DNA of 64,000 bases from a virus: positions 1-64,000 of IMG/VR virus record IMGVR_UViG_3300047476_001680; one strand, 5' to 3'. The first letter of the stretch is position 1. The number at the start of each line of letters is the position of its first letter. This document shows positions 25,469 to 47,615 of the stretch, piece by piece. Made by a program: the position numbers and the translations under genes. The notes under the pieces were generated by a model. That model did not search any database. It had not been told where the DNA came from and saw nothing but the letters and a program-made list of their open reading frames with translations.

Positions 25469-25737
25469 CAAACAGTTCATCTTCATCTAATAGAGTCAAG
25501 GTAGTATTTGCTACTCTTAGACTGGCTGATGTTGAAGACCCGGAAATATACGCGGCAGGTCCTTTGATGGATTGGCAAAAAACAGAAATGGGACAATGGT
25601 GTATGGAGAATTCTCTAGATCAACCCCATTATACTATAATACAGGACTATGCTACCTGGGGGTATACTATCAAGGTATCGGGAATACTAATGGAAAAAGA
25701 CTTCACTTATTTTTCCCTGAAATGGGGGCAACAATGA
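25465..25737 (+). CDS. Hypothetical protein
   Basis: ATGA overlaps at both ends. Confidence 0.6.
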   Translation: MTNSSSSSNRVKVVFATLRLADVEDPEIYAAGPLMDWQKTEMGQWCMENSLDQPHYTIIQDYATWGYTIKVSGILMEKDFTYFSLKWGQQ

Positions 25738-26702
25738 AATTTATTGTAACTGGTGGTGCTGGTTTTATAGGTCATAATGTTGTTCGTCAACTTGAGGATC
25801 AAGGTCATAATTGTTTTATTGTTGACAATGTCACTGACTATGGTTTTTTAAACAATCAAGAACTTGAGTATCTTTATCGAGCAAGATCTAATAGAACTCG
25901 AGCTGGCGCTCATCACATTGATATAAGAGATTATAAATCACTTAGAGGATTTTTTAGTACTTTCGCTGTTGATTGCCACGCTGTAATACATCTAGCTAGT
26001 TTTCCAAGACAAAAAGTTGTTGGAAAAAATCCTATCTGGGGTAGTGAAGTGATGAGTACTGCACTTATTAATTTGCTGGAATTAACCAAGAGTTACCGTA
26101 TACCTAAATTTGTTTATATAAGCTCTAGTATGGTTTATGGAGACTTCAAGGACGATGTGAAAGAGGATGCTATATGTCGCCCACAGGGACAGTATGGTAT
26201 TATGAAACTTATGGGCGAGCATCTTGTACGTGACTATACAAGACAAGGACATTTTGATCACGTTATCATTAGGCCTAGTGCAGTCTACGGAGAATATGAC
26301 GTGGAGGATCGTGTGGTAAGTAAGTTTATGTTAAGTGCTCTACGTGGAGAGACTTTAAAAGTTAATGGGGCTGGTGAAACTCTTGACTTTACCTACGTGG
26401 AAGATGCTGCCAGTGGCATCGTGGCGGCTGCCACTAAACAAGCTGCCAATAATAAAACATATAACATCACAAAGAGTCACAGTTATAGTCTACTGGACGC
26501 GGCACGTATTGCTGTCGAGATCGCTGGTCGTGGTGAAATAGAGGTGCGTGACAGAGATCTAGACTTTCCCAGTCGCGGTGCCTTAAACATTGACGCAGCA
26601 CGTAGAGATCTTGGCTTTGACCCCAAGGTTGATGTGCGTGAGGGGTTTCAACGATATGCTGATTGGTTTAGGAGTAGTCCATATTGGAAAAACCTGATCT
26701 AA
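25734..26702 (+). CDS. NAD-dependent NDP-sugar epimerase/dehydratase
   Basis: TGGAGFIG, SSSMVYG, YGIMK (YxxxK) and DFTYVED motifs. Confidence 0.92.
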   Translation: MKFIVTGGAGFIGHNVVRQLEDQGHNCFIVDNVTDYGFLNNQELEYLYRARSNRTRAGAHHIDIRDYKSLRGFFSTFAVDCHAVIHLASFPRQKVVGKNPIWGSEVMSTALINLLELTKSYRIPKFVYISSSMVYGDFKDDVKEDAICRPQGQYGIMKLMGEHLVRDYTRQGHFDHVIIRPSAVYGEYDVEDRVVSKFMLSALRGETLKVNGAGETLDFTYVEDAASGIVAAATKQAANNKTYNITKSHSYSLLDAARIAVEIAGRGEIEVRDRDLDFPSRGALNIDAARRDLGFDPKVDVREGFQRYADWFRSSPYWKNLI

Positions 26703-27832
26703 TTAAGTTTATTGATCTAAAAAGGCAATATCAGGGAATTCGCGAACAAGTTTTAGATGCAGTGGACTCTGTGTTGTCCACTGGGCAGGTTCTAGATGGT
26801 GCTAATATAGAACACCTAGAAGGCGCTATAGCGAGAATGACCAATCGCCGTTATGCGGTGGCTGTAAATTCGGGAACGCAGGCACTCATCTTTGCCGTCA
26901 GAGCTCTTGAAGAAACAAATAAAACAGGTAATGTCAGAAACAAAATATTGATACCTTGTATAAGTTTTGTAGCAACGTTAAACTCTGTTCTAGAGACTCA
27001 TAATAATCCAGTTTTTTGTGATGTAGACTATCAGGGTCTCCTGGATATTACTACATTAACCAAGCCCTTTGATCGATCATCAGACAGGCGCCCTTTTGAT
27101 ATTGTAATGTATGTTAATATTTTTGGTAACACCATTGACTACGACAAGTTCTACACTGCGGTTAAGTTTTTTGGTGACCAAGACATACCCATCATTGAAG
27201 ATGCTGCACAGAGTTTAGGTGCAAAATACAAAGGTATACCCAGTGGCAAACTGGGTGATATTAGCATACTAAGTTTTGACCCTACCAAAAATTTGCCTAA
27301 CTATGGTTCGGGCGGTATGATACTCACCGACGATGCAGCAGAGTATGCTTTGCTACGAGATCTAAGAGATAACGGCAAATACGATAACTATTCTAGAACT
27401 GGAATCAATAGCAAGATGAGTGAGCTAGATGCAGCCGTGATGCTAGTAAAGCTAGAGCATTTCCCCAAGTGGCAGAAAAGACGCACTGATATAGCTAATT
27501 ACTATACACAAGAGCTACAAGACTATGTACAAGTGCCCAAGATCACGCAGGATTGTGAGCCAGCCTGGCACAAGTATGTTATAAGATATGCTGACCGCAG
27601 TATTCTCAAAGCTCACTTAATGCGTGAAAATATTGAAACAAAAATACACTACGACACGCCACTTTTTGACCTACCGCTGGGATTTAGTTACGCTGATTTT
27701 AAATCAACTATGTATACCAATGCTATGATGTTTAGTCGTAGCTGCCTCAGCTTACCCATATATCCCGAGCTAAGTGACCTAGAAGTAGAGCGAATAGTTA
27801 ACAGTGTCAAAAGTGGTGCCGCAAGGACCTAG
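26684..27832 (+). CDS. DegT/DnrJ/EryC1/StrS PLP sugar aminotransferase
   Basis: NSGTQAL, IEDAAQS, SFDPTKNL and LSLPIYP motifs. Confidence 0.92.
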   Translation: MEKPDLIKFIDLKRQYQGIREQVLDAVDSVLSTGQVLDGANIEHLEGAIARMTNRRYAVAVNSGTQALIFAVRALEETNKTGNVRNKILIPCISFVATLNSVLETHNNPVFCDVDYQGLLDITTLTKPFDRSSDRRPFDIVMYVNIFGNTIDYDKFYTAVKFFGDQDIPIIEDAAQSLGAKYKGIPSGKLGDISILSFDPTKNLPNYGSGGMILTDDAAEYALLRDLRDNGKYDNYSRTGINSKMSELDAAVMLVKLEHFPKWQKRRTDIANYYTQELQDYVQVPKITQDCEPAWHKYVIRYADRSILKAHLMRENIETKIHYDTPLFDLPLGFSYADFKSTMYTNAMMFSRSCLSLPIYPELSDLEVERIVNSVKSGAART

Positions 27833-30191
27833 CGTAGTCTGCTAGCCAGGCCCAGTCAAAACTTAATTTAATCTTGTCGTAATCACCAGCCACTTGCTCG
27901 TAGTAATCAAGAGCATCCTGTGCCCCCTGAAGGCACCAGTCGGCATTCTCTCCCTCAGCCCTCGTAGTCCAGACTTTTAGTCTGTGACTAGTCTCTATGG
28001 TTTCAGTCTGACTATTAAAGTGTTTGAGCTTTAGTACTTCACGAAATGCTGTACGCCAGGTCATCCAGGGATTTTGATTGAAATGTGCCACACCGGAAAG
28101 CACAGGCACACTCTCGTGAGCTTGGCTTAGAGTAAAATCTATGCCGGGTTGGTTATTCTCTAGTACTAACTTTTTATTATAGGCGATAAGACCCTGATGA
28201 CCATACTCCAGTCCATTAAGAATATTCTTACTGTTAAAAATATAATGTTTAGGCTGCTGGAAATAATCTGGTTGCCAATAAAAATTAAAATCTGGAGTTA
28301 TCTCTAGTTTAGCAAACACTGCAAAGAACCAGGGAGTATGGCTTAACTCCGCGGCTGCTTGATAGGCGGCTGTCCTGCCATTGACATTTTGTACTCTACG
28401 CACCTTTTTACTGGCAATGTTCGCAAGATGATTGTACCAATGCTCAGCATCAGGTTCCCCGTTACTGATATAGATTATATCCAGAGGTTGATCAATACTT
28501 AGTTTATTTTTTGTTTTGTTGATATAGGGATAATCGTAGATCTGTGTGTTGATGTGACCCTTGGCGTCACGTGGCACATAGCAAACACTGTTACTGGGAC
28601 AGAAGCTGACTAACTCTCTGTCTTTATGTGACCATAGACAGACATTGTCCATTATATGTGTATGTGATCGGTTGGTAAACAGTGCGTAGGGAGTTTTAAA
28701 CTGATGCTTGCTTATTTCTTCAGTGAGATTGTCTGAATCATACTTAACAATATCCTGAGGAAAACGTAATACTATTTGATCTTCACAGTAGTTTATGATA
28801 TTAAACCAATCCAGCAGTTCAAGATCATACATCTGTTGTTTAAAGCTGGGCACGTGAATATAAAATGTATCACCACGTTTCAACACACCCGTGGGGAAAC
28901 AATGTATCATTTCTCTCTGACTGCCGTCAGGATGCCAGGTAAAATCAAATTTACTGTAATCACAAATGCTGCTAACGATCCAGACGAACTCAGTGTCAGC
29001 CAGGCTCATTATGCGCTTAAAAACATTGAGATGGTTGTCCACGTACCTGGTGCTTTTGATATCCGGAAAACGTTCTTTTAATTCTTCCAGTTGTCGCTTG
29101 CTTTCTGGATTTAGGAAATCCATATAGAATATCTGCGTGGCATTGGTGCGTATTTTCTGGCCGGCCACATATTTGATGCCGGCGGTGCCATTGTATATGG
29201 GCCCGCCTTCTCTCTGCCACTGAGTGGGGAATCTGTATTCGTAATCTGGCTCAAATCTAGAAGGGTGCCAACTAAAATCAAAGCCTGTAGTATCTATGCC
29301 AGCGGGCACTGTCCACCGTGACATATCAGGCAATGCTGTGGCAGTGGGAGTATATACAATTTTAACTCCAGCAGTTCCACGATAGATTGGCCCACCAGAA
29401 CTTTGCCATTGGGTACCAAAATGATATTCGTAGTCTAGGTCCCTAAAGTCAGGATGCCAACTAAAATCAAAGCTTGCTTGGTCAATATTGTCGGGCACTG
29501 ACCACCGGGACATATCAGGAAGTGCTCGGGCTGTTTGTGCCGTTTCTAGTTTTATGCCAGCTACTCCCTGGTATATTGGTCCACCCGTTTTTTGCCACTG
29601 GGTACCAAAATGGTATTCATAGGCAGGTTCCCTTATATCAGGATGCCAACTAAAGTCAAAATTGCTAGTATCTATGTTAGCTGGTATTTTCCACCGAGAT
29701 AAGTCAGCAAGAGCGTGTGCACGTTGCTCGCTGGCTAACTTTGTACCCTTGGTGCCTGGGTATATTGGTCCACCAGTGTCTTGCCATTGCGTGCCAAAAT
29801 AATGCTCGTAATCACCATCAGTAAAGTCTGGGTGCCAGCTAAAATCAAATTTTTCTTCGTCTATATGTACAGGTATACGCCATACAGACTTTACACTTTG
29901 TCTAATTACTCGTTGATCGCTTCTAAAATTATACTGTAATTGAGCAGCGGAACCTTTTCTAGCAAAATAAGTTCCACCATTGCGCTGATGCTGCGAAGGA
30001 AAAACGTGCACGTGGTCTCGTTCCCAGGGTGGTGGTTGCCAGAAAAAATTGAAACCAGTGTAATCATTATGGCCATCAAGGAACCAGAAGAATTCAGTTC
30101 GCGACAGTTCAGCAGCTTCAGCTAAACTGTTAGCAGAACGCTCAAAGGCGAATAATCCTGTGGGTTGGTTTTTATAGAAAACGTCAAACAT
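27807..30191 (-). CDS. Glycosyltransferase-like protein with tandem 63-aa Trp-rich repeats
   Basis: Four FDFSWHP...TQWQ..GGPIY repeats; C-domain (DIIYISNGEP, WRTAFRE) resembles the 44393-45328 protein. Confidence 0.65.
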   Translation of the reverse strand: MFDVFYKNQPTGLFAFERSANSLAEAAELSRTEFFWFLDGHNDYTGFNFFWQPPPWERDHVHVFPSQHQRNGGTYFARKGSAAQLQYNFRSDQRVIRQSVKSVWRIPVHIDEEKFDFSWHPDFTDGDYEHYFGTQWQDTGGPIYPGTKGTKLASEQRAHALADLSRWKIPANIDTSNFDFSWHPDIREPAYEYHFGTQWQKTGGPIYQGVAGIKLETAQTARALPDMSRWSVPDNIDQASFDFSWHPDFRDLDYEYHFGTQWQSSGGPIYRGTAGVKIVYTPTATALPDMSRWTVPAGIDTTGFDFSWHPSRFEPDYEYRFPTQWQREGGPIYNGTAGIKYVAGQKIRTNATQIFYMDFLNPESKRQLEELKERFPDIKSTRYVDNHLNVFKRIMSLADTEFVWIVSSICDYSKFDFTWHPDGSQREMIHCFPTGVLKRGDTFYIHVPSFKQQMYDLELLDWFNIINYCEDQIVLRFPQDIVKYDSDNLTEEISKHQFKTPYALFTNRSHTHIMDNVCLWSHKDRELVSFCPSNSVCYVPRDAKGHINTQIYDYPYINKTKNKLSIDQPLDIIYISNGEPDAEHWYNHLANIASKKVRRVQNVNGRTAAYQAAAELSHTPWFFAVFAKLEITPDFNFYWQPDYFQQPKHYIFNSKNILNGLEYGHQGLIAYNKKLVLENNQPGIDFTLSQAHESVPVLSGVAHFNQNPWMTWRTAFREVLKLKHFNSQTETIETSHRLKVWTTRAEGENADWCLQGAQDALDYYEQVAGDYDKIKLSFDWAWLADYARSLRHHF
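29150..29890 (-). repeat. Four 189-bp coding tandem repeats (ends approximate)
   Basis: Equivalent GG(A/G)TGCCA(A/G)CTAAA blocks at about 29263, 29452, 29641 and 29830. Confidence 0.85.
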
Positions 30192-30699
30192 CTAAAATCT
30201 GTTCTACTTGAATACCTGAAGCTTTGAGAAACTTGATGCCAGCATCATCACGATAGTTGGCACCGTAGAAAACTCTCTTAATACCTGATTGATAAATTAG
30301 TTTTGCACAGTCAATGCAGGGGCTATGGGTAACAAAAATATCAGCACCATCCCCACTTTCACTGGACTTGGCTAATTTAGAGATAGCATTGGACTCGGCG
30401 TGCAGTACTTCGGGTCTAGTCACTAACTTGTATCTACCCACTGATACATTTTCAGTATATTCTTCCAAGGGCCATAGTTCCTCAACCTCTGGCAGACTTA
30501 ACCACCCGCCCGCATCCTGCGGCATCCATTCACGTGTTTCACAATTATTGTCCCAGCCAGCCGGCATACCATTGTACCCAATAGAGATAATTCTATCGTC
30601 TTTGACCACAATGGCGCCCACTTGGAGACGTTTGGCGTAACTAAGTCCAGCAAATGTCTTGGCTGTGGACATATAAGCCCGCTTAAATTTTTCTTTCAT
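30184..30699 (-). CDS. dCMP deaminase
   Basis: GYNG, HAESNA and PCIDC motifs. Confidence 0.92.
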   Translation of the reverse strand: MKEKFKRAYMSTAKTFAGLSYAKRLQVGAIVVKDDRIISIGYNGMPAGWDNNCETREWMPQDAGGWLSLPEVEELWPLEEYTENVSVGRYKLVTRPEVLHAESNAISKLAKSSESGDGADIFVTHSPCIDCAKLIYQSGIKRVFYGANYRDDAGIKFLKASGIQVEQILDV

Positions 30700-31808
30700 T
30701 ATTCACACATTTCTAAAAAAGGGTAAACTAGGTCGTTCACTAGTCTATATTCTACTACGTCTGCATTAAAAAATAAATGATAATTATGTTCAATTTTACC
30801 TTCAGTGATTCTATCATATAAAAATTTTGATGATTTTTTGTTCGAATACACATTGCCTTGCAATTTTTTCACATTTTCAACAATCTGGTCTAATCGCACA
30901 TACGCATCATCTGTCTCATCATAGCTTTCATCAAATAGGTTATCATAAGTTTCAAATCCCAAACTCTTTAAATGTTTCACAATGCCCGGCTGGCCGTGTA
31001 TTATAAAAGGATGCCCGTACATTATGGGTTTATAAGTTTTTTCTGTTATAAACAGTGGAGAATCAAAATTATTTTTATTATGGAGAAAAGGCTGCCTTAT
31101 TACACAGGTTTCCGATACCAAGCTAAAATATGTATCATTGTACCAATCTGGATTAAAATACCTGTCGTTAATTATTCCCAGGTTTTCATATTCCCATAAA
31201 TTATATTGATTTTCAAAATTGATATTTCTAGGAAGGTATATATTTTCCTTCATACAACTATACAATACGTCAGGCAATAACGGTTCCATTTTCTTCAAGA
31301 GTTCTTCTCTATGATTTCTTAATCTACCGATGGGCATTAATGCCAGTTTATTTCTATTTGCTTCGCGAGGATAGGAGAACTTGTGAAAGATTAGTTTCTT
31401 GTCACCCCTGAAACTTTCCCAGCCATTCAAATGTCTAAATACTTCGTTGAACCAAAACCAATTAGTTACATTGAATATTTCAAATTGATTATAAATTTCC
31501 GGATGGTGTTCGGGATAATATTCTGTAAAATGCCATATAATAACCTTAAACCCGTCATTTCGAAGTGACGCATAAAGTGGTAAATTATTTAAAAATTGTT
31601 CTTGATTATAAATGTCACAAATTACAAAGATATGTTGAGTTTTATCATAGGATTTTGTTTCATCATATATTTCTATATTAAAAAAATTTTCAAAAAAAGG
31701 CCGCATATTCAAGCCGAAATATGCTGTAGATGATTTTTCATAAAAATCTTTTCGACGGAACCAATATTTTTCAGTTGCCCAATCCAATAAAACAATAGTT
31801 TTCTTCAT
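30699..31808 (-). CDS. Putative glycosyltransferase (GT10-like C-domain)
   Basis: SLVSET...FITEKTYKPI...HPFII resembles the fucosyltransferase TEK motif; AT-rich. Confidence 0.45.
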   Translation of the reverse strand: MKKTIVLLDWATEKYWFRRKDFYEKSSTAYFGLNMRPFFENFFNIEIYDETKSYDKTQHIFVICDIYNQEQFLNNLPLYASLRNDGFKVIIWHFTEYYPEHHPEIYNQFEIFNVTNWFWFNEVFRHLNGWESFRGDKKLIFHKFSYPREANRNKLALMPIGRLRNHREELLKKMEPLLPDVLYSCMKENIYLPRNINFENQYNLWEYENLGIINDRYFNPDWYNDTYFSLVSETCVIRQPFLHNKNNFDSPLFITEKTYKPIMYGHPFIIHGQPGIVKHLKSLGFETYDNLFDESYDETDDAYVRLDQIVENVKKLQGNVYSNKKSSKFLYDRITEGKIEHNYHLFFNADVVEYRLVNDLVYPFLEMCE

Positions 31809-32032
31809 TATTTTTTATTTCTATTGGCCACTGCGTCCTTGAGCATAGCCTTAACCATTAATATGACTCTATTTTTTTCTTTCTCGGCTAACAATTTTAC
31901 TAGCACTTGTTTATCTTCGTAACTTTTAGCATTGTCCAAAAACTCGGGAGGAACAGTTAGCTTGGGTTTTTTGGGTTTAAATTTTTTAAAATCATTTGCG
32001 TCGTCATCGTTCATTTTATTATTATTCTCCAC
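31808..32032 (-). CDS. Hypothetical protein
   Basis: 74-aa basic ORF, TAATG coupling. Confidence 0.55.
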   Translation of the reverse strand: MENNNKMNDDDANDFKKFKPKKPKLTVPPEFLDNAKSYEDKQVLVKLLAEKEKNRVILMVKAMLKDAVANRNKK

Positions 32033-32045
32033 GATATTTTTATTT

Positions 32046-33524
32046 TTAACTACACACTTTTACACCATACATTTTTTCGAACCTGTCTGCATCCAGGCGA
32101 TCATTGACTATCGGCTCGCCACGTACATTCAAGCTAGTATTTAACAGCATAGGACAGTCTGTGATCTCGTACCAACGTTCCAGTAAAGATCTGATGCCTG
32201 AATTGGAATCTTTACCGACTGTCTGCACTCTACTAGTACCGTCCACGTGTACTATGGCAGGAAAGAGATCAGGTTGTTTACATTTTGCCACCACTTGCAT
32301 ATAGGGGCTTGATTTCCACCCACGCGGCATTTCAAAATAATTGTCCACAAGTTCCTCTAGAATTACTGGGGCGAAAGGTCTGAATTTTTGTCTACGCTTT
32401 ATTTCGTTAACTCGATCCTTGATATCGGTACCTCTTGGATCTGCTAATAAACTTCTATTGCCCAATGCCCTGGGTCCAAATTCTGCGCGACCGCTAGCAA
32501 CGCCCACAATGCCATCAACCAGTAAACTATCAAGAAGGTCATCAACAGGGTATGGACCAGGTATATTATTCCCAATATAAGCGTTAGTCCAATTAAGCTG
32601 ACTCCCATAAGCGAGGGCCGCAGCACCAAGGCTACTACCAGCATCGCCGGGATTAGGCATAATCCAAATATTCTCAAAGTATTCTCCTAAATTTCTATTG
32701 GCTAGACAGTTCAACGCCACCCCGCCACTGTAAACTAAATTATTACTATTGTTTAGATTTCGAGCTCTTGAAAAAACTTTTTTCAGAATTCTTTCTGTCA
32801 CTTTTTGTGCACAAGCGGCTATTTCTTCTTTTTCAAAAAAAGCTAGTTCATTTTCAGAGATTCCCAAATGTAAATTTAGTTTAAAAGAAGACTCGGCAAT
32901 ATCGTCAATGTATTTGCGTTCTAAAATACTATAATGGTAAGGACGAGCATAGGCGCTCATCCCCATCAATATATATTCTTCTTCGTTGGGTTTTAGCCCC
33001 ACTCTTTTGGTCATTGCACTATAAAATAAACCAATACTATGTGGATACTTTTTTGACCAAAGCTTTTCATATCGGGCACGGCCGCCTACGAGTGAAGCAT
33101 TCCAGATTGATATAGTATCAAACTCCCCAATGGCATCAATGACCACAACAGTGGCGCGGTCGAATCCACTGGTTTGGAATCCCGCAGCGGCGTGACTGAG
33201 ATGATGTCCGTAGGTTTTTATTTTAAAATTATTTAAATTGATGGGGAGTTGTTGCTGTAGTATTTGTCTAGTAGTAAACTTGTCCAGTTCTAGACCTTGT
33301 CCACTATATAAGCGACGTAATTGTTTAAGCCAAGGTCGTTCAAAATAAGCTAGGGTATTGATGGGAAATGCAAAAGCATCACTTATTAAAGACTTATGTA
33401 AGTTGGGGTCGTTTTTTATTTTGCTGTAACGTTCACTGTGCCCAGCAAACAGTATGTCCCCTTGTGGACTAACGACACTAAGAGCAGCATCGTGATCACC
33501 CGCCGATATACCTAATATGTTCAT
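32046..33524 (-). CDS. Carbamoyltransferase (NodU/CmcH/TobZ family)
   Basis: HDAA, HHLSHAA, DAIGE, GGVALNC, EFGPRALGNRS, RPFAP and LNTSLN motifs. Confidence 0.93.
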   Translation of the reverse strand: MNILGISAGDHDAALSVVSPQGDILFAGHSERYSKIKNDPNLHKSLISDAFAFPINTLAYFERPWLKQLRRLYSGQGLELDKFTTRQILQQQLPINLNNFKIKTYGHHLSHAAAGFQTSGFDRATVVVIDAIGEFDTISIWNASLVGGRARYEKLWSKKYPHSIGLFYSAMTKRVGLKPNEEEYILMGMSAYARPYHYSILERKYIDDIAESSFKLNLHLGISENELAFFEKEEIAACAQKVTERILKKVFSRARNLNNSNNLVYSGGVALNCLANRNLGEYFENIWIMPNPGDAGSSLGAAALAYGSQLNWTNAYIGNNIPGPYPVDDLLDSLLVDGIVGVASGRAEFGPRALGNRSLLADPRGTDIKDRVNEIKRRQKFRPFAPVILEELVDNYFEMPRGWKSSPYMQVVAKCKQPDLFPAIVHVDGTSRVQTVGKDSNSGIRSLLERWYEITDCPMLLNTSLNVRGEPIVNDRLDADRFEKMYGVKVCS

Positions 33525-34140
33525 AAACTTTATTAGCAATTAATTTATGCCCTTCGGGATTGGGATGACCCCGAGGCATTTTGGATAATTTGTTAGTCCA
33601 CTCATCGGTACTATCAAACATTGTTTTATCTACAAACATATCCATATCAATATTTTTTACAAGATCTTGATGTAAATGATTAAATTTCATATGCAATTTA
33701 TTTGCATTATGACTGATAAACATCACGCAGGGTATTTGTTTTAACTTACACATACCTTGTATTAAAATTATCTGTCTCAGCCAATTGGTATAATAGTACT
33801 CAGGCTGATCGTGCAATACAGTATACTTAATTAAATCTACTCTGTGCTGTAAATTGTGATCATTGACCCAGGGACTAATCCGTCCTCCCCAAACATCATA
33901 TATTCCGTAGTTATCAGCTAATTCCATTCTTCCGGGATTGGTCCAGGAAATTACTAATAATTTGCAATCAGACAAAACTACATCTAGGGCTCTTTTTACT
34001 ATCCTGGTATTTCCGCAAGCTTCTTTACCAAGATTCGTGACTTCTCGTCCCAATAAATTTTGCAATACACTGGGCCAGGCGTCTGCCCTATCTGCCAGTT
34101 CAGCACCGTACGTAAAGCTACAACCCACTGCATATATCAT
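33496..34140 (-). CDS. SGNH/GDSL-like hydrolase or acyltransferase
   Basis: GCSFTYG at the N-terminus; GHPNPEGH at the C-terminus. Confidence 0.7.
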   Translation of the reverse strand: MIYAVGCSFTYGAELADRADAWPSVLQNLLGREVTNLGKEACGNTRIVKRALDVVLSDCKLLVISWTNPGRMELADNYGIYDVWGGRISPWVNDHNLQHRVDLIKYTVLHDQPEYYYTNWLRQIILIQGMCKLKQIPCVMFISHNANKLHMKFNHLHQDLVKNIDMDMFVDKTMFDSTDEWTNKLSKMPRGHPNPEGHKLIANKVYEHIRYIGG

Positions 34141-34143
34141 AAT

Positions 34144-40263: not shown

Positions 40264-41669
40264 TATATGCCCCTGTACCATTCTGCCAAGTCGGGAAACG
40301 TTTTTTCAAAATCTCTACCCCTTCTTTTATCAAACTGCACAAAGAAATTTTTAAAATCTTGCGCAAGATCTGATTTAATATATGTGACGTTTTGTTTGTC
40401 GTAATCTTGTTCTTCAAAAGTAATACCCTTGTGTGGAACTTCCACAGTCTTTAAGTATTCTGCCAAACGTTTTATTTGTACAATATCATCAGCATTAAAG
40501 TATTTTGAATTATCTGGATTGTCTATAAATTCCATTATATCATCACTGTACTTTACTCTTTTTTCCATTGGTAAAATAAAAATATTTTGAAAAGCTGGGA
40601 ATCTCACAAAATTAATATATGAACTTAATTTTCTTTTACTGCGTGTTTCTTGTCTAAAATTTTTGGACCATATTAAGTATTCTAAATATCCATCTATGCT
40701 CACAGCACTTATTGTGCTTTGTAGATGAATTTTATCCACTACTTTTTCTTTTATAAGTCTACGTAGATTTTTTTCAAATTGCACACTGTCTAGACCATCT
40801 CTCACATACTCTGCTTTGGTGCCAATATTTTCTATACTCACCAACATAAATATTTCTTTTAATCTTGGTTTAGTTCGTTTTAAATGATCTATTAACTTAT
40901 CCATAACATCGTCATCGTAGGATAAATTTGTAATAATACCTATTTTTTCTAAACTAGTATTTTCTTGTTCTGCACACCAATCCAGGAATCGCCATAGATA
41001 ACCACCCATCGTGGGCTCGCCGCCAGTGAACAATATAAGTTTGAGGTGTTTATGGAGTTCCGTTTCCCACCACTTAAAGAAAGCTTCTATATAGGGATTA
41101 TTTTCACGATCATTGTAGTCATACTTTACAGTATGATCCTGTGCACTGGCATATTGATCGCTACCATTGGTAGTTAAATTAGTATATGGGCCGTTATTTC
41201 TCACATCCTTGGCCCAACTGCTGCTGATATAGGGACTACAATAGGTGCAGGCCAGCTGACAGGTTCTATCGAAGGCTATTTCTAGTTCTCGTAATTGTAC
41301 GTCTGAATCAGGGTCAGCATCAAAAGCTAATTTTAACTCCTCGGGACTGTAGTTCATACTATATCGCATCCTATCGGATATAGCTTCTGGATTTGCTTCT
41401 TCAATGACCCAACAAAACTGACAATTGATGGGCTTCTCACCGCGAAGCATCTGCGCTCTTTCAACCTTTTTTAATTTGGTATTATGAATAGCTGAGGGAT
41501 TGGTTTTAATTTCTTCAGGGTCAATACTGTGTCCTGGATTGTGAAAGCAGCTCTGTGTGCCTCCCATCCAGAGTTGTATGGTAGCATAATACCACTTGTG
41601 CCCACAAAAGCTAGCTGACTTGGTGTCCAGATGTTTCTTTTTAAAAAATTTTATTTTCTGTTCATTCAT
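40263..41669 (-). CDS. Radical SAM/twitch protein (3rd, close paralog of the 2nd)
   Basis: CGHKW, SCFH, CQFC; CQLACTYC; GGEP. Confidence 0.88.
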   Translation of the reverse strand: MNEQKIKFFKKKHLDTKSASFCGHKWYYATIQLWMGGTQSCFHNPGHSIDPEEIKTNPSAIHNTKLKKVERAQMLRGEKPINCQFCWVIEEANPEAISDRMRYSMNYSPEELKLAFDADPDSDVQLRELEIAFDRTCQLACTYCSPYISSSWAKDVRNNGPYTNLTTNGSDQYASAQDHTVKYDYNDRENNPYIEAFFKWWETELHKHLKLILFTGGEPTMGGYLWRFLDWCAEQENTSLEKIGIITNLSYDDDVMDKLIDHLKRTKPRLKEIFMLVSIENIGTKAEYVRDGLDSVQFEKNLRRLIKEKVVDKIHLQSTISAVSIDGYLEYLIWSKNFRQETRSKRKLSSYINFVRFPAFQNIFILPMEKRVKYSDDIMEFIDNPDNSKYFNADDIVQIKRLAEYLKTVEVPHKGITFEEQDYDKQNVTYIKSDLAQDFKNFFVQFDKRRGRDFEKTFPDLAEWYRGI

Positions 41670-43021
41670 AGAGTGTTATACCATTCCACCAAGGAGGGGA
41701 AACTAACCGCAAAGTCTTTTCCTCTACGTTGATCATACTGGCTATAAAAGTTTTTAAAGTCCATACGCAATTTTGAAAGTTCAAATGCTTCACTATGTGG
41801 AGTTTCCACTCGATCAAGATAATTTATCAATCTTTTCACGTGGGCGATTTCGTGCTCGTGCAGTCCTACGTGATTTTGCCAGATATCCAACCAATGCTGG
41901 AGCCTGCCTTTATATTTTGACTTGATGTCATCAGGCAATACTAGGGCACTCTGGAAGCTGGGAAACCTTAGTATATTTAAGGTAAAGTTTATACTGTCTT
42001 TACCAAAGTTACTTTTAAATTCCAACAATTTAGTTAAAAAATCTGGCAATGAATCCAGGCACAATGCATTGATAGTGCACATAACGTGCACCCCCTTGAT
42101 TGTTTTATTGCGCACAAGTAATTCTAGATTTTTAAGCCATTGGTTGTAGTCCAACCCATCTCTAATGTACTCCGCTTGTGGGCCCACACTTTCATTGCTG
42201 GTGTAAATTTCTAAATGTGGTATTCCCTCGACCTTGTCTAAAAATTCTTTCAGTCTTCCTTCATCGAATCCCAGATTGCTGTTTATGGCCAGCTTGGTTG
42301 AGCTCTTGTTGTCGTTACTAGTATACCAGTCTAATAGTTTCCAGGTGTAACCAGACATAAGAGGCTCACCGCCGGTAATTCTTAACTCCTTTAGGCTCTT
42401 GTGTAAATCTGATTCCCACCAGTTAAAAAACGCAGTAATATAAGGGTTTTCTTCGCCGAACTTATAAAGTTGACTACTATCGTGAGTATGAGTAAAGTGG
42501 TTCCTACCATCACTAACCAAATTGACATAGGGTCCATTATTTTTAATGTCTCTAACCCAGGTGCTACTAAAGGCAGGATTACAATAAGAACAAGCAAATT
42601 GACAAGTGCGGTCAAAAGATATTTCAAGAGTCTGTAGGTTAACGTCACTATCCGACGGTAAATTAAATGCATATTCGAGATCCTTATCATCGTAAATAAC
42701 TGTTTTGTAAACACGATCACTGACATTATTAACATCAGCGTCTTCAATCTTCCAGCAATACTCGCAGCCACGAGGTCTTTCTCCCTGTTGCATCTGTTTA
42801 CGTTCTGCTTTTTTATGACTAGTATTATGCAGAGCACGTGGATTACTCATTACTTCTTGTTCAGACACGTGATGTGGTAAAGGATGATGGCAGCTAGTAG
42901 TCTGGCCACTGCCCAACCAAATGGTGGCATTATACCACTTGGCCGCGCACCAACTTTCACTCTTGATATCTATTACACGCTTTTTATAGTCTAAATAGGT
43001 TTCGTTATTTTGTTTTGGCAT
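41666..43021 (-). CDS. Radical SAM/twitch protein (2nd)
   Basis: CAAKW, SCHH, CEYC; CQFACSYC; GGEP. Confidence 0.88.
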   Translation of the reverse strand: MPKQNNETYLDYKKRVIDIKSESWCAAKWYNATIWLGSGQTTSCHHPLPHHVSEQEVMSNPRALHNTSHKKAERKQMQQGERPRGCEYCWKIEDADVNNVSDRVYKTVIYDDKDLEYAFNLPSDSDVNLQTLEISFDRTCQFACSYCNPAFSSTWVRDIKNNGPYVNLVSDGRNHFTHTHDSSQLYKFGEENPYITAFFNWWESDLHKSLKELRITGGEPLMSGYTWKLLDWYTSNDNKSSTKLAINSNLGFDEGRLKEFLDKVEGIPHLEIYTSNESVGPQAEYIRDGLDYNQWLKNLELLVRNKTIKGVHVMCTINALCLDSLPDFLTKLLEFKSNFGKDSINFTLNILRFPSFQSALVLPDDIKSKYKGRLQHWLDIWQNHVGLHEHEIAHVKRLINYLDRVETPHSEAFELSKLRMDFKNFYSQYDQRRGKDFAVSFPSLVEWYNTL

Positions 43022-44393
43022 AATATTCGCATTGGCGCCAAAATTCAGACATTTCTGGAAATGATTTTAGAAAGTCTGTCCCCCGGCGGCGATCGTGTTC
43101 GTTAAAAAACTTATAAAAGTCAGCTTGTTGCATTGTAACATAATCTGGATCAAGATTGCGACCTTCATTCATCCAATCTATCACACGCTGTAATCTCTGT
43201 AACTCATAATCTTTGAATCCTTTAAATGGCCTAGTTGGATCTTCCAGATTCTTCATTATGAACACCCAGCTTTCCTCTAGAAGATCAGAATACACTTCTG
43301 GTAAAATTTGTAGACTCTGATGTGTGGGCTGCCTAAGTATGGGCGTATCAAACCAAACTCTCTGATAGGTTTTGCTATATATCTCTCTAAGTCCCATAAT
43401 GGCATTAAACAACTCACGGACACCAGTTACATTTAGAGCATTCATTGTGATAATAAATGTAAGGCTGCTTCTATTGGGAACTTCATTTAAAAATCTATTT
43501 ACATTATCCCAGAGCCTGTTAAAATCCAACCCATTTCTACCATATTCAGCTTTTCCCCCCACACAGTCCAAACTCACATACTGCATAAAGTGCTGTAGGT
43601 GTTTGGGTTCGTTGGTAGTTAATCTCTTTACATAGTCCAGATATTTTTCAAACAACTCTGGTTCTACACTGAAGTTACTGGTCACATCAAGATGTAGATC
43701 AGGACTGGGATTTTCCAGAACGTAATCAAATACTCTATAGGTATTGCGATCCATCAAGGGCTCGCCACCAGTCATCCTAAAGTGTTTTAGTTTCGGGTAG
43801 AGTTCAGGCCACCAGGACCAAAAGGCATCAACATATGGATTATCTTCACGAGCGGGGATAGGTTTTCTCCGACCCAGGAAGTAACTAGGCTCGTTATGAA
43901 GATTACTAGTGGGATATGCTCCGTGCCTAGCAATTTCGTCAGCCCAACTGCTACTAAACTGAGGGCTACAATAACTACACTTAAGGTTACAAGCGTGATT
44001 AAAATTGACTTCCACATAACTTGGTATTTCATTTTCTTCTCCGGTACTATTTACAATACGATCAAAATGTTCCGCGGCCCAGGGTTCGCCGCTGCGATAG
44101 TGCCTGTCACTTAAATTACCTAGGTCTTCTTGTGTCCAGCAATAGCTGCACTCTTGTGGGCGTTCGTTGCGTAGCATAATTCGACGCTGTTCTTTTTTGT
44201 GCGGTGTATTATGTAATGCACTGGGATTGTCTTTTAGCAAGGATGCGTCTATTTCGTGTAGCGGGGGATGATAACAACTATTTGTTAATCCTGTGGGCAA
44301 GTGAAGACTAACCTGTTGCCATTTAGCTAGGCACAAACCTTCCCCCAGTTTGGATTTCATTTGTTCTGCTGCTGAAAGAAAATCGCTTGACAT
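43005..44393 (-). CDS. Radical SAM/twitch protein (1st)
   Basis: CLAKW, SCYH, CSYC; CNLKCSYC; GGEP. Confidence 0.88.
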   Translation of the reverse strand: MSSDFLSAAEQMKSKLGEGLCLAKWQQVSLHLPTGLTNSCYHPPLHEIDASLLKDNPSALHNTPHKKEQRRIMLRNERPQECSYCWTQEDLGNLSDRHYRSGEPWAAEHFDRIVNSTGEENEIPSYVEVNFNHACNLKCSYCSPQFSSSWADEIARHGAYPTSNLHNEPSYFLGRRKPIPAREDNPYVDAFWSWWPELYPKLKHFRMTGGEPLMDRNTYRVFDYVLENPSPDLHLDVTSNFSVEPELFEKYLDYVKRLTTNEPKHLQHFMQYVSLDCVGGKAEYGRNGLDFNRLWDNVNRFLNEVPNRSSLTFIITMNALNVTGVRELFNAIMGLREIYSKTYQRVWFDTPILRQPTHQSLQILPEVYSDLLEESWVFIMKNLEDPTRPFKGFKDYELQRLQRVIDWMNEGRNLDPDYVTMQQADFYKFFNEHDRRRGTDFLKSFPEMSEFWRQCEYYAKTK

Positions 44394-45328
44394 TACCAAC
44401 CCTCAATTCTACGGATGACGTCTAGTTCAGTCATCATTACTTCAGTGTTTCTCTGCCCAGTACTATAATGATGCTTGAAAAATTTACTTTGTTCAGGAGA
44501 CAAAGTTGTTATAGGTAACCCCAGTCGATTTTTTAGAGAATCTTCAATGTTTTGACAGCCCACTAGTGGATCTTCCTTGCCAAAACTATCCCAGAGTTTT
44601 TCTAACATATCAAAATCTTGAACGTGATGGTGATCCCATTTTTCCAGCATAATCATATATGTGCCCAGTCTGGCTCCATACATTGCCCAGTAACCATTTT
44701 CTACATCTGCTCCCACACTCTGCCAGATGCATAGATGATCGTAATTACGATTGTTAACCTTTTGTTCGAACTCTTGTAGTGTCGGTTTGTGTCCGCGATC
44801 TAGACACATCTTCACTCCTTCACGAAACCCAGCACGCCAGGCCTGTTTGGCACTGCCGTTGGGATAGGTGGTACTATAACAATTATGCATCGCAAAATAT
44901 TTTGGATCAAAACAAAACTCCACCGATGTTTCTTCTCTGCCGTCGGAGTTTTCGTGAGTACGCATATTGTTGACAAATTCGCGGCTCCAGACACTGAGAC
45001 CACCATTACCATACCTTAAACCATTGATGACATTTCTGGCTTTCCAACGGAAGGCTGCACCCTGGTATTCTGGTTTTAATGTCAACTGTAGGTTAAAAAA
45101 TTCTGGATCAGGTAGGTTATCACCATCAATTAATACAAACCATTCAGTGTCACTGGTGTTGGCTGCGGCCTTGTGAGCAGCATCAGACCCCTTGATGCCA
45201 TCAACCCTCTTGGCCCAGGGAATCATATTTTGTATCTTAACCCAAAAGTCTTCCTTTTTGGGTTCATCATAGGTTAAGAAAATTACATCTAGGTCAGCAA
45301 TATCAAGTGTGTCGATGTGTGTAGTCAT
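44393..45328 (-). CDS. GT-A-like glycosyltransferase
   Basis: DVIFLTYDEP, VLIDGDN (DxD) and WRAGFREG motifs. Confidence 0.6.
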   Translation of the reverse strand: MTTHIDTLDIADLDVIFLTYDEPKKEDFWVKIQNMIPWAKRVDGIKGSDAAHKAAANTSDTEWFVLIDGDNLPDPEFFNLQLTLKPEYQGAAFRWKARNVINGLRYGNGGLSVWSREFVNNMRTHENSDGREETSVEFCFDPKYFAMHNCYSTTYPNGSAKQAWRAGFREGVKMCLDRGHKPTLQEFEQKVNNRNYDHLCIWQSVGADVENGYWAMYGARLGTYMIMLEKWDHHHVQDFDMLEKLWDSFGKEDPLVGCQNIEDSLKNRLGLPITTLSPEQSKFFKHHYSTGQRNTEVMMTELDVIRRIEGW

Positions 45329-45683
45329 AATAGTCAATGTGTTCAAAATCTTCAAGGTCGTTTTTTTCTAGTACCAGGGCTGCGTGTCCTGGCACTGTGG
45401 GAATACCGGTACTACTTTTTTTAAGTTTTCTTTTTAGCTCAACACTGTGCACAATGAGTTCAGCTACTCTATCCTTAATGTGATACTGGTGATAATTATG
45501 ATATATTTCTTGTTCAACAACTATATAAGGTAATTCTGTCCCAGGATGGTTTATCATACTGCACATTTTGATATCACCATTTTCATTATAGTACCATCGA
45601 TATTCAGGAATCTCAGGTCTATAATCCAGGTGCTCCTGGTAGGCTGCCATCAAGGCTTTAAATAATTCCTGCTCTGCGTTCAT
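45303..45683 (-). CDS. Hypothetical protein
   Basis: 126-aa overlapping ORF in operon. Confidence 0.6.
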   Translation of the reverse strand: MNAEQELFKALMAAYQEHLDYRPEIPEYRWYYNENGDIKMCSMINHPGTELPYIVVEQEIYHNYHQYHIKDRVAELIVHSVELKRKLKKSSTGIPTVPGHAALVLEKNDLEDFEHIDYYDYTHRHT

Positions 45684-46515
45684 AGTATTCGATTAATTCC
45701 TGTGTGGCATACTCTTTTTCGTAATAGTGAACTGGCCAATATTGATTTACACCATTAATACGTATCATATCCCCGTCACGTTCACTCATAACTGCATCAT
45801 ACCAGGGTATGCCCACATTGTAGCCATTTATTTCTGGTTTCATATGTGCAAACTTTATAAAATCCAAACTGGGCAGTGTGACATTTTCCACCCCAATCAT
45901 CTGTGCTGTCACCGCATATAATACATCAGTACTAGGCACATCTTCGCGACAATTCTTTAACACTTTATTTTTTAATTCGTCCCAGTGTTCTCGAATTTGA
46001 TTGGCTGTTCTAAAAAAATTAGCGCCAGTATGAGAAAATCTGAAATACATCAGCCCAGTGTATACATCAGGTAATGAATTACTGTCAAAAAATCTTCTGT
46101 ATTCTCTACTAGTTGCTGGAATTCCCAGACTGGTTAGACAACCCAGAGGCATTAATACATCGCGAAGTCTAAAACTTGGTAACCAATGATCTATGCTGCT
46201 AGTAAAAAGAAGATCACTTTCTAACTTGATAGTTTCTTTAAAAGGCGTTAGGCTAAATGTCTGGCACTCGTTGGCCAGTCTCCATTTAGAGTCGTCAGAA
46301 TTATAATTATTTTCGATCTCAATGACGTAATCAAAAACTCTCCGATGCCGGTCAGTCAGTAACTCTGCTGTTTTTTTATCAACCACCACCGCATATTTGT
46401 TTTGCTTTTGTGTGCATTTAACATTAAGAGCCTGCAGATAAGCTAGACTCAAATAGTCTACCTCTGATGTATTTTCGGCTATGGTTAAAAAACCCAGTTG
46501 TTCTTTATGCTGCAT
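45658..46515 (-). CDS. GT-A-like glycosyltransferase (paralog of next gene)
   Basis: ENTSEVDYL and LTPFKETIKLESD (ExD). Confidence 0.55.
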   Translation of the reverse strand: MQHKEQLGFLTIAENTSEVDYLSLAYLQALNVKCTQKQNKYAVVVDKKTAELLTDRHRRVFDYVIEIENNYNSDDSKWRLANECQTFSLTPFKETIKLESDLLFTSSIDHWLPSFRLRDVLMPLGCLTSLGIPATSREYRRFFDSNSLPDVYTGLMYFRFSHTGANFFRTANQIREHWDELKNKVLKNCREDVPSTDVLYAVTAQMIGVENVTLPSLDFIKFAHMKPEINGYNVGIPWYDAVMSERDGDMIRINGVNQYWPVHYYEKEYATQELIEYYERRAGII

Positions 46516-47317
46516 TACTAATATATTGTTCTAAAAAATTATTAAAATTGTCTGATAACAAATACATCTTGTCCATAACGTGTATGTCCTGTATGGGAGA
46601 TATCAATGCTCTGTCCCTTGTTCGTATTACTATTGAGTTATTGAGACTTTCCATTGCCTTGATTTCATTATCAAAAGTAAACATCGACCAGGGTATTCGT
46701 TTATTTTTCTCTAGTTTATACCCGTTGATAACTAGATCCGCGATGGCGAAGGCGTAATCATTTCTATAACTCTGATTAAAAATATTAAACATTGCACAGT
46801 AGTAACTATATCTATTTTCTATCCTCCTTACCAAATCAAATAAACTTTGGCTTACTGGTGTTCTATTAAAAACAATCACGGTGGCCCAGATATAGTTTAT
46901 ACTGCCGCGAGCCATTGGTTGTGTCAGTGTTTCGTACCCATTGTAACTATCTCCCATAATTTTATAGTCGAAATCAGCATCCATCAATTTGGCAAGATTA
47001 TCTGTGAGAGGCAAATAATCAGCGTCAATTAAAATAGTGGTGTCGTAAGGACTGAGCTCGTAGGCACTGTATCTGCTTTTATTCCTCCAAGCCCAGGCCT
47101 GGTTATTATAATATTTGGTATTAGAATTATCTAGTGCATCAATGTTTATAATCTTATCAAATAATGAATTTTGGTAATCTTGAGAATCAGTGATCAGAGT
47201 TACAGGAAGTGCTAGTGTATGCTGCACTAGTTGTGCACATCTCGATGCTATTTTTAGGTAATCTATTTGCTCAGTATTACTGGCAAACATAACCACTCCT
47301 TTAGACTTTTCTGACAC
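46505..47317 (-). CDS. GT-A-like glycosyltransferase
   Basis: SNTEQIDYL, LSPYDTTILIDADY (DxD) and RNDYAF motifs. Confidence 0.6.
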   Translation of the reverse strand: MSEKSKGVVMFASNTEQIDYLKIASRCAQLVQHTLALPVTLITDSQDYQNSLFDKIINIDALDNSNTKYYNNQAWAWRNKSRYSAYELSPYDTTILIDADYLPLTDNLAKLMDADFDYKIMGDSYNGYETLTQPMARGSINYIWATVIVFNRTPVSQSLFDLVRRIENRYSYYCAMFNIFNQSYRNDYAFAIADLVINGYKLEKNKRIPWSMFTFDNEIKAMESLNNSIVIRTRDRALISPIQDIHVMDKMYLLSDNFNNFLEQYISNAA

Positions 47318-47615
47318 GAGTTATTTCCTGATATTGCTGATGCCAAGCGTTCATTTGTACTTGATAGTGTTGCCGGGCTAGGTCGTAGAATTCAGTTCGA
47401 TTTACCTTTACTGGATTTTCATAAACGTCTGCCAGAAATAATTCCTCATCAGGCCAGGTTGCCACAAAGGATAATAATTCGGGAGTTGCCAAGAACATCC
47501 CGCCATTATAAGTAAAATGCAGATTGGTTTTTATTGCTTCCCTGATTAACTTTTTGTTTATCTGGATATCAGTTGCTTGTCGCACTGATTCCGCTAGCTG
47601 ACTTATTGAATTCAT
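47301..47615 (-). CDS. Hypothetical protein, first gene of the tailoring operon
   Basis: 104 aa, downstream of the promoter at 47643-47671. Confidence 0.65.
   Translation of the reverse strand: MNSISQLAESVRQATDIQINKKLIREAIKTNLHFTYNGGMFLATPELLSFVATWPDEELFLADVYENPVKVNRTEFYDLARQHYQVQMNAWHQQYQEITRVRKV

Follow-up and report, generated by a model that had tools for sequence, protein, structure and literature searches.

What does a jumbo phage make with seven radical S-adenosylmethionine (SAM) enzymes, a carbamoyltransferase and several glycosyltransferase (GT)-like proteins, all encoded in one gene run directly behind its tail fibre genes? The question is raised by the IMG/VR virus record IMGVR_UViG_3300047476_001680, a virus contig of 88,750 bases of which the first 64 kb (hereafter the window) were analysed. 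An earlier note on this DNA had read the run as a cluster for building a glycan and tailoring it with radical SAM enzymes, and as a candidate system for glycosylation of the virion. We found that the enzyme set is real and the module conserved. The reading we favour, at slightly short of an even chance, is that a glycan is synthesised in the cytoplasm, tailored by radical chemistry, carbamoylated and edited in its acyl groups, most likely on virion proteins encoded upstream.

Enzymes of the gene run

The genes form a single run on the minus strand (27807-47615), in which neighbours overlap by 1-53 nt and the sole gaps are of 13 nt and 104 nt. Starting with the first gene of the operon, the order is u104, G270, G285, u126, G320, R7 to R1, U368, pep32, SGNH, carbamoyltransferase, u74, U369, dCMP deaminase and REP794 (Table 1). 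Coordinates and gene content as given in the earlier note agree with the map of open reading frames (ORFs), the translations and the family scans; its inventory lacked the dCMP deaminase, which sits inside the run. It had also placed the start of the run directly after the fibre genes, where u104 indeed lies 76 nt past the last fibre-like gene, and had a short-chain dehydrogenase/reductase (SDR) and a DegT aminotransferase converging on the run from the plus strand, as they do.

Table 1. Features of the module and its surroundings, in window coordinates unless stated otherwise (aa, amino acids; NDP, nucleoside diphosphate; PLP, pyridoxal phosphate)
Feature	Positions	Strand	Basis or description
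Extended SDR, NDP-sugar 4-epimerase-like, 322 aa	25734-26702	+	Pfam Epimerase 1.3e-42; last-but-one gene of ThyA operon
DegT/DnrJ/EryC1-family PLP sugar aminotransferase	26684-27832	+	Pfam DegT_DnrJ_EryC1 1.6e-73
REP794, 794 aa	27807-30191	-	Seven F(D/N)FxW(H/Q)P motifs; C-terminal GT-A-like domain without DxD
dCMP deaminase	30184-30699	-	Pfam dCMP_cyt_deam_1 4.8e-22; PHROG 174 3.9e-52
U369, variable-copy phage family	30699-31808	-	No Pfam, PHROG or NCBIfam match
NodU/TobZ/NolO-type carbamoyltransferase, 497 aa	32046-33539	-	Carbam_trans_C 4.7e-51, Carbam_trans_N 4e-35
SGNH/GDSL-type esterase or acyltransferase-like protein	33496-34140	-	Family profile to 4rsh 3.9e-6
pep32, basic 32-aa peptide ending DPFIY	34144-34242	-	Translation; lies in the 104-nt gap
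U368, cyclophilin-like barrel with helical insert (predicted)	34245-35351	-	AlphaFold2 model, pLDDT 85.1, pTM 0.84
R1	35320-36612	-	NF033640 290.9 bits
R2	36602-37723	-	NF033640 201.5 bits
R3	37716-38930	-	NF033640 346.1 bits
R4	38917-40281	-	NF033640 406 bits
R5	40263-41669	-	NF033640 256 bits
R6	41666-43021	-	NF033640 300.5 bits
R7	43005-44399	-	NF033640 327.5 bits
G320, GT-A-like, best-conserved GT-like protein	44393-45355	-	AlphaFold2 model, Foldseek, invariant DGD
u126, small conserved protein	45303-45683	-	No Pfam, PHROG or NCBIfam match; in 23 of 45 full loci
G285, weakly GT8-like	45658-46515	-	Profile to glycogenin-1 E 0.006, aligned through DxD position
G270, paralogue of G285	46505-47317	-	Invariant D98-x-D100
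u104, first operon gene, small conserved protein	47301-47615	-	No family match; in 39 of 45 full loci and RsoM2USA
13-bp hairpin	47631-47659	-	Between last fibre gene and u104; overlaps -10 element
Sigma-70-like promoter TTGACA-17-TATACT	47643-47671	-	11 of 12 matches; operon head, in 76-nt gap before u104
F316, fibre-like gene	47692-48642	-	Directly upstream of module
F499, fibre-like gene	48665-50164	-	PHROG tail fibre 1.6e-6; virion structural protein 7.2e-8
u211	50203-50838	-	Among fibre-like genes upstream of module
F530, fibre-like gene	50982-52574	-	C-terminal part 34% identical to that of F499
Giant structural protein, 4155 aa	52625-63862, continuing to contig position 65092	-	FG-GAP repeats 3.8e-13

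With 201.5-406 bits, all seven radical SAM genes counted earlier in the stretch 35320-44399 exceed the curated threshold (170 bits) of NF033640 (N_Twi_rSAM, twitch domain-containing radical SAM protein). Invariant throughout are C52, C70, C112 and C115, the CxxxCxxC cysteines C166, C170 and C173, and a GGEP motif. Like the family, R1-R7 have a four-Cys auxiliary-cluster domain before the CxxxCxxC core, and in R1, R3 and R4 a Pfam SPASM match lies N-terminal of Radical_SAM. The paralogues are 21-41.5% identical, R5 and R6 being the closest pair, and judged by these sequences they are old. NF033640 itself is a catalogue entry with a generic name, whereas here it is represented by 4-7 ancient paralogues per phage.

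The comparison drawn earlier with twitch radical SAM enzymes such as BtrN and NeoN of aminoglycoside pathways holds for the type but not for the architecture, the twitch domain being C-terminal in BtrN and N-terminal here. A profile search of the PDB with the radical SAM proteins returned only 8vpo, an uncharacterised radical SAM protein (2.2e-5), and SkfB (0.0024), and neither BtrN nor NeoN. What is shared with the two enzymes, which act on free pseudo-oligosaccharides, is the radical SAM core with one auxiliary [4Fe-4S] domain and a neighbourhood of genes for aminotransferases, GTs and carbamoyltransferases. By analogy, BtrN and NeoN would be the likeliest model for how R1-R7 work.

The family also occurs in phages in another context, since in Vibrio phage K566 its genes lie outside the module: four N-twitch radical SAM genes at 161.5-168.3 kb (L001) stand amid hypothetical genes, not adjoining fibre genes, and G320, G270, G285, U368 and the carbamoyltransferase have no homologues there. 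One report (PMC5332604) mentions, in its accessible part, that a T4-like environmental genome has 12 radical SAM genes, and gives no function. Besides R1-R7, our own contig encodes two radical SAM proteins that are of different types, at 9161-10678 (plus strand) of the window and at 79248-80261 (plus strand) of the contig (L171:9248-10261), with Pfam Radical_SAM matches of 2.2e-14 and 2.4e-7. Homologues of these are found inside the module in some relatives (L038, L046, L066, L093, L094) and beside N-twitch radical SAM genes in two bacterial loci (L104, L127).

About five GT-like genes had been proposed, and none of the GT-like genes matched Pfam, PHROGs or NCBIfam. Taken one by one, they bear out the proposal in part: at least one, G320, has a predicted GT-A fold, and G285 and G270 are weakly GT8-like, while REP794 lacks a DxD, U369 has no family match and U368 is not a GT. 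The AlphaFold2 model of G320, built from 23 homologues, has a mean predicted local distance difference test (pLDDT) of 75.6. Nearly all rows listed by Foldseek against the PDB were GT-A glycosyltransferases, the best being A64R of chlorovirus PBCV-1 (2p6w, E 4e-3, prob 0.99), and mimivirus R655 and R699 were also among the structural matches. VIA aligned 120-135 residues within 16-165 at a root-mean-square deviation of 3.5-4.3 and Z 6-7.8, a level which the tool rates as common, the matches including nucleotidyltransferases of the same fold. D77, G78 and D79, which follow a strand at 72-77, are invariant in 23 sequences. The model thus predicts a GT-A-like fold with a DxD motif for G320, a statement on fold and motif rather than on activity. 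Searched against the PDB, its family profile gave nothing beyond chance-level matches to DppA.

G285 carries E99-x-D101 (E-S-D) where GT8 enzymes have DxD, and is homologous to G270 (hhalign 98.8%, E 6.7e-17). All 19 matches of a merged G285/G270 profile (A10) were glycogenins, weakly so, with a best E of 0.027; the profile of G270 by itself had no match in the PDB. In REP794, the motifs stand at residues 47, 115, 178, 241, 304, 415 and 635, four of them at an exact 63-aa period; the repeats are seen at the protein level, with no tandem repeat in the DNA. The protein has no match in Pfam, PHROG or NCBIfam, and its C-terminus aligns with the G320 family (hhalign 97.7%, E 1.6e-12), FAK replacing DGD. 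For U369, an Atlas lead to GT10 scored 0.80-0.81. The GT10 family PF00852 was matched neither by the protein nor contig-wide at E<=10, the U369 family profile found nothing meaningful in the PDB, and none of 120 listed homologues carries a Pfam domain.

In U368 (predicted template modelling score, pTM, in Table 1), VIA found cyclophilins at Z 7-8.9, rated middling by the tool. Foldseek against the PDB gave noise only (topoisomerase, Cascade), the PDB profile search nothing meaningful and Atlas nothing usable, and the 10 matches in BFVD at E<=0.001 are uncharacterised proteins which all come from phages, one of these being the Agrobacterium jumbo phage Atu_ph07. On its model, U368 belongs to a phage-restricted fold family and is not a GT. 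The idea of a new fold was set aside on account of the cyclophilin-like barrels found by VIA. Related modules contain unassigned ORFs of about 260-290 aa, which might be paralogues of U368.

The carbamoyltransferase had been assigned to the NodU/TobZ type, and both of its Pfam domains are above their cut-offs (Carbam_trans_N 122.3 bits against 24, Carbam_trans_C 173.2 bits against 27); it also matches PHROG 1601 (1.3e-96) and stays below the NodU equivalog (140.9 against 1000). The SGNH protein is below the Pfam cut-off (22.8 against 32.9), and the earlier assignment is supported instead by the family profile, of which 9 of 9 matches are SGNH hydrolases, among them the GDSL protein 4rsh, and by the invariant residues G6, S8, N36, H192 and H198, which include the Gly-x-Ser nucleophile motif of block I and the His of block V.

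Between these genes and U368 lies pep32, which by sequence is the best-conserved product of the operon: tblastn found copies 72-91% identical in 63 of 82 loci searched. Bacterial carbamoyltransferase loci (L129, L114) encode a 49-aa membrane peptide ending in APFIYSLF next to SxtJ. Because PFIY-ending peptides adjoin SxtJ and a carbamoyltransferase in bacteria, pep32 is most likely a membrane-less partner of the phage carbamoyltransferase, a link made by motif and position only. A tblastn search of the bacterial loci with pep32 gave chance-level rows, and Pfam, including SxtK-type families, no match at E<=1. The phage shares with SxtI/NodU/TobZ and their SxtJ/SxtK partners both carbamoyltransferase domains and an adjoining small PFIY-ending peptide. 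SxtJ (PF19588) is present in L129 and L114 but not in the phage, whose peptide is shorter (32 aa compared with 49 aa) and lacks the membrane helix of the bacterial one.

For the SDR, every NCBIfam equivalog is under its cut-off, the best being dTDP-glucose dehydratase (121.8 against 365.1 bits), and the closest solved chain is 6zl6, an 'epimerase domain-containing protein' (2.2e-26). The motif T-D-E before YxxxK marks NDP-sugar 4,6-dehydratases of the RmlB type, and the active-site stretch here, SSS...YGIMK, is without it. The SDR was therefore rejected as an RmlB-type 4,6-dehydratase on the equivalog score, the missing TDE and the nearest solved chain, and the label of NDP-sugar epimerase used before fits it better. 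DegT covers positions 3-359 of 360 of its Pfam profile at 248.5 bits (cut-off 19.8) and reaches no NCBIfam equivalog cut-off, PseC coming closest with 185 against 423.5 bits. On the plus strand, the SDR is preceded by ThyA, which at 356.5 bits against an equivalog cut-off of 327 is by sequence a true thymidylate synthase; ThyA and a probable dihydrofolate reductase (DHFR) adjoin the run.

No cluster protein has a hydrophobic 19-residue Kyte-Doolittle window reaching 1.6, and the family scans found no flippase, polymerase or polyprenyl-phosphate transferase in the cluster. All its products are thus predicted to be soluble, which places the chemistry in the cytoplasm and makes an envelope product unlikely.

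Conservation in phages and bacteria

Two features mark the contig, 25% complete according to CheckV, as a fragment of a T4-related jumbo phage: genes for a T4-type portal (Portal_T4, 4.2e-106) and for a baseplate protein of T4, and relatives that are records of 338-374 kb with a completeness of 97-100%. Behind fibre genes, the gene order of the module is found again in 80 loci fetched from IMG/VR, and synteny was counted in the 45 fetched loci that are full-length; the counts include near-identical loci such as L027/28/29, L019/20, L031/32 and L033/41/44. In the full loci the common order is F499, F316, u104, G270, G285, (u126), G320, R7, R6, R4, R3, R1, U368, (SGNH), carbamoyltransferase. G320, R7, R6 and R1 are present in the same order in 45 of 45, and so the arrangement is far beyond chance. 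The other genes follow closely: G285 and R3 (44 each), G270 and R4 (43 each), F316 (42), U368 (40), u104 (39), and the carbamoyltransferase and F499 (37 each). An R5-type gene is found in one full locus and an R2-type gene in none, the radical SAM genes numbering 4-7 per locus and five in 27 of the 45. Copies of U369-like genes vary from 0 to 5 and of SGNH-like genes from 0 to 4, a glycan-like pattern of a conserved core with a variable periphery.

Scattering of the genes in relatives, which would have spoken against a module, was not seen; they form a conserved unit directly behind the fibre genes. The unit is found as well in a cultured phage of Ralstonia, RsoM2USA, the only one of 50,697 phage records with homologues of G320 or R7, and megablast of window positions 30000-48000 against the same number of phage records gave no match. 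RsoM2USA carries a minimal version, with one radical SAM gene and GT-like genes, in the order F499-like, u104, G270, G285, G320, R7, G320-like, after the tail sheath and a giant structural protein. In the accessible part of their paper, its authors list these genes as hypothetical and report ORF361, the homologue of our giant protein, as a virion protein by mass spectrometry (PMC8504454).

The plus-strand genes were judged on five whole near-complete records, since the 10-kb flanks of the fetched loci end at about 31.7 kb of the window. ThyA-SDR-DegT faces REP794 in all five, even in G005 with its block inverted, though G002 is without ThyA; a DegT homologue is beside the module in four and 12 kb distant in one. 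Each of the four complete relatives has exactly one ThyA-family gene and G002 (343,632 bases, 99% complete) has none, yet G002 has SDR-DegT facing REP794 and the module.

R6 has at least 595 relatives in IMG/VR, on contigs of up to 374 kb, and R4 has 6,747 relatives at E<=1e-10 among 8,000 candidates scored. The phages that carry the module are a large clade of T4-related jumbo phages from freshwater and soil. Near-identical DNA is present in freshwater and aquatic metagenomes of several studies, with 10 DNA runs matching at least half of the words; no RNA run is listed among the sequencing runs matching the stretch.

As to the radical SAM family in cells, a scan of species genomes gave 306 relatives. 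Six of the loci (L093-L098) are the phage module itself, on contigs filed in metagenome-assembled genomes of Legionellales, Flavobacterium, Porticoccaceae, Rickettsiales and Haliscomenobacter, the last on contigs of 148 and 183 kb. Probably these contigs come from phages and were binned with bacteria; alternatively, they may point to the hosts. The remainder are bacterial, with 1-5 paralogues each, in Bacteroidota, Bdellovibrionota, Polyangiaceae, Paenibacillus, Hyphomicrobiales and others. Neighbours were tallied in 20 loci, picked for long contigs from 72 non-phage loci, as ORFs of 120-700 aa within about 4.5 kb. Among the 114 neighbours the commonest Pfam families are Radical_SAM (15), SPASM (9), PhyH (6) and ABC_tran (3), PhyH being the commonest family other than radical SAM. 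On a Saprospiraceae contig (L101, L131), N-twitch radical SAM genes stand in a run of genes of about 300-420 aa, at least one of which is a PhyH-family dioxygenase.

The enzyme set of the phage recurs in a bacterial locus on a Crocinitomicaceae chromosome (L129, 1068-20485), with gene orders similar to it in L114 and L120. It encodes a UDP-sugar dehydrogenase, an SDR epimerase, the carbamoyltransferase with SxtJ and the PFIY peptide, a 1079-aa UbiA-GT4-SGNH fusion, three N-twitch radical SAM proteins, a sulfotransferase, an SGNH protein, PhyH and an ATP-binding cassette (ABC) ATPase. N-twitch radical SAM proteins, carbamoyltransferase, SDR epimerase, SGNH and GT are thus common to it and the phage. 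Unlike the phage cluster, it is membrane-anchored (the fusion, SxtJ and the ABC transporter) and has a sulfotransferase and PhyH, and it is without homologues of G320, G270, G285 and U368. The locus looks like an uncharacterised glycolipid or polysaccharide pathway.

Transcription of the module

The promoter in front of u104 is the joint best site in 33500-53000. Of 55 distinct regions upstream of u104 homologues, 29 contain a site with at least 10 of 12 matches, whereas only 3.4% of 1100 control windows do. The fibre genes have another signal: TAAATA is found 11-50 nt upstream of 42 of 54 F499 and 13 of 56 F316 homologues (control rate 1.1%), and upstream of 0 of 55 u104, 0 of 61 G320 and 0 of 73 R7 homologues. 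It stands about 25 nt before the start codons of fibre genes. The full T4 late promoter TATAAATA had 1 match against 6 expected, and the shorter TAAATA was informative instead. Since TAAATA stands at the fibre genes and a sigma-70-like site at the operon, the two use different promoter classes. By its sequence signals the module would be transcribed as a separate unit from a promoter of host type, probably early.

The hairpin between the last fibre gene and u104 folds at -22.2 kcal/mol (z -5.1), none of 200 shuffles being equally stable, and similar hairpins are visible in relatives. It is not listed by the terminator scan and its U-tract is weak; it is probably a terminator or attenuator of the fibre transcripts. 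Farther upstream, a CBM_5_12 match in the giant 4155-aa protein falls just below its cut-off (26.0 against 26.2 bits).

What the module may make

The favoured reading, a phage-made glycan on virion proteins, can be put as six steps, of which the first two (promoter and solubility) rest on sequence evidence and the others (donor, order, reactions and acceptor) we infer. Host RNA polymerase would initiate at the sigma-70-like promoter before u104, independently of the late fibre genes and probably ahead of them, and every product would be soluble. The epimerase-like SDR and DegT may then draw on host pools to make an amino-sugar nucleotide. G320 and the GT8-like pair G270/G285 would build a conserved core, to which the variable-copy U369-like proteins may add a variable periphery. 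Five ancient N-twitch radical SAM enzymes (R7, R6, R4, R3, R1), with R5 and R2 as two extras in this window, would each abstract hydrogen from a particular carbon and so oxidise, epimerise, dehydrate or alkylate the sugar, the auxiliary cluster handling electrons. Finally, the carbamoyltransferase, with pep32 as its partner, would O-carbamoylate a hydroxyl, and SGNH proteins would add or remove acyl groups. The acceptor would be a virion protein encoded just upstream, one of the fibres or the giant structural protein, giving a phage-made coat on the adsorption apparatus.

This reading is favoured by the enzyme identities, the predicted GT-A fold with DGD in G320, the GT8-like signal confined to glycogenins, the tight overlap of the genes, the operon's own promoter, the lack of hydrophobic stretches, the synteny behind the fibre genes, the ThyA-SDR-DegT block facing REP794 and the pattern of a constant core with a changing periphery, and by the Crocinitomicaceae cluster, which repeats the enzyme set independently in a cell. 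It also has precedents. Virions of chlorovirus PBCV-1 (A64R), mimivirus fibrils and mycobacteriophage capsids and tails are glycosylated by soluble virus-encoded GT-A enzymes in the cytoplasm, without host membrane machinery. The genes adjoin structural genes there as they do here, and A64R is the best Foldseek match of G320. We know of no virus glycosylation system, in chloroviruses, giant viruses or mycobacteriophages, with radical SAM enzymes or a carbamoyltransferase.

Several points weigh against it. The link to the virion is one of gene position. A sugar-nucleotide dehydratase to supply the keto-sugar for DegT was not found. Support for the GTs is modest, with Foldseek at E 4e-3, VIA at Z <8, a fold common to nucleotidyltransferases and GT8 at E 0.006-0.03, and U369 as a GT is an unverified lead. 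To our knowledge no member of NF033640 has a known reaction, and a search of the literature found none; the nearest solved relatives are peptide-modifying or uncharacterised (SkfB, 8vpo). Nor is the family a simple glycan marker in bacteria: no GT family is among the 25 listed commonest neighbour Pfams of the 20 loci, and in Paenibacillus (L137) it stands in a cluster of acyl carrier protein (ACP), ketosynthase, FabG, GT2 and ABC genes. Lastly, the operon has a promoter class other than that of the fibre genes (TAAATA upstream of no u104 homologue but most of F499) and is parted from them by a strong hairpin, and the distinct promoter class weakens the argument from co-expression.

The same early-type promoter, in place of the late TAAATA of the fibre genes, would suit a soluble small molecule made early to manipulate the host or competitors, such as a glycoside resembling an aminoglycoside or a nucleoside, the head group of a glycolipid, or an exotic sugar nucleotide. 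So would the solubility of all proteins. DegT, twitch radical SAM enzymes, a TobZ-type carbamoyltransferase and GTs mirror aminoglycoside pathways, and bacterial members of the family stand amid PhyH dioxygenases, a sulfotransferase, a halogenase-type enzyme, ACP and ketosynthases, and ABC transporters. We nevertheless consider this unlikely: the module adjoins the fibre genes in RsoM2USA and in 45 or more other loci, family scans of the window showed no cyclitol synthase, exporter or self-resistance gene, and the pattern of conserved core and variable periphery is more typical of surface glycans.

Most SPASM/twitch enzymes act on a polypeptide, and the radical SAM proteins might likewise cross-link or epimerise fibre proteins or process pep32, u104 or u126, with the GTs decorating the product. 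Their closest solved sequences, SkfB and the uncharacterised radical SAM protein, and the weaker NCBIfam matches of R2, mostly peptide maturases, are in line with this, as are the strong conservation of pep32 and its C-terminal Tyr, with which mycofactocin and pyrroloquinoline quinone precursors also end. No PqqD or recognition-element (RRE) domain, peptidase or Cys-rich precursor was found by the family scans. The PFIY-ending peptide in bacteria lies beside SxtJ with no link to ribosomally synthesised and post-translationally modified peptides (RiPPs), which would explain pep32 as a carbamoyltransferase partner; once such peptides had been seen beside bacterial carbamoyltransferases, pep32 was ranked low as a RiPP precursor. 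The bacterial contexts are glycolipid-like rather than RiPP-like, those of Crocinitomicaceae and Paenibacillus suggesting tailoring of a glycolipid or glycan over a peptide. Action on a polypeptide is therefore improbable.

The host surface and the phage DNA had both been named earlier as alternative targets, and both now look weaker. Remodelling of the host envelope (lipopolysaccharide, capsule or S-layer glycan), for superinfection exclusion or protection of the infected cell, lacks its machinery in the phage cluster, which has no membrane segment, flippase, polymerase, polyprenyl-phosphate transferase or SxtJ-type partner, and in which even pep32 is without the membrane helix of its bacterial counterpart. 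The early-type promoter, the well-known serotype conversion by phage GTs and acetyltransferases, and the Bacteroidota homologue cluster with its membrane UbiA-GT fusion and ABC transporter lift it to no more than a slim chance. For hypermodification of the phage's DNA, in which a modified base would be glycosylated and tailored, the chance is slimmer still: a dCMP deaminase inside the run, ThyA and the probable DHFR beside it and an early-type promoter as for the T4 DNA glucosyltransferases could fit, but ThyA is above the equivalog cut-off for a true thymidylate synthase, no hydroxymethyl-pyrimidine handle is evident because no complete relative has more than one ThyA-family gene and G002 keeps the module with none, and the conserved neighbours are fibre genes.

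Judged from its sequence, the locus is thus most likely a variant of virus-encoded glycosylation centred on an enzyme family for which we know of no described reaction, and the literature searched contained no description of this phage system. A more doubtful proposal is that five or more dedicated radical SAM enzymes build an undescribed sugar for display on the tail fibres of this abundant clade; it could, for example, be branched, be of higher carbon number, or undergo several epimerisations before it is carbamoylated. If true, this would be the first virion glycan tailored by radical SAM enzymes and would give the first reactions for NF033640, a family that accounts for between a quarter and a third of an operon of 20 kb conserved in hundreds of jumbo-phage contigs. 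The cultured phage RsoM2USA, with its minimal version, makes the question testable at the bench. Should the product be on the fibres, it would bear on host recognition and on resistance to proteases or grazers in abundant environmental phages, and whatever the product, the five conserved paralogues are a ready set of new radical SAM reactions.

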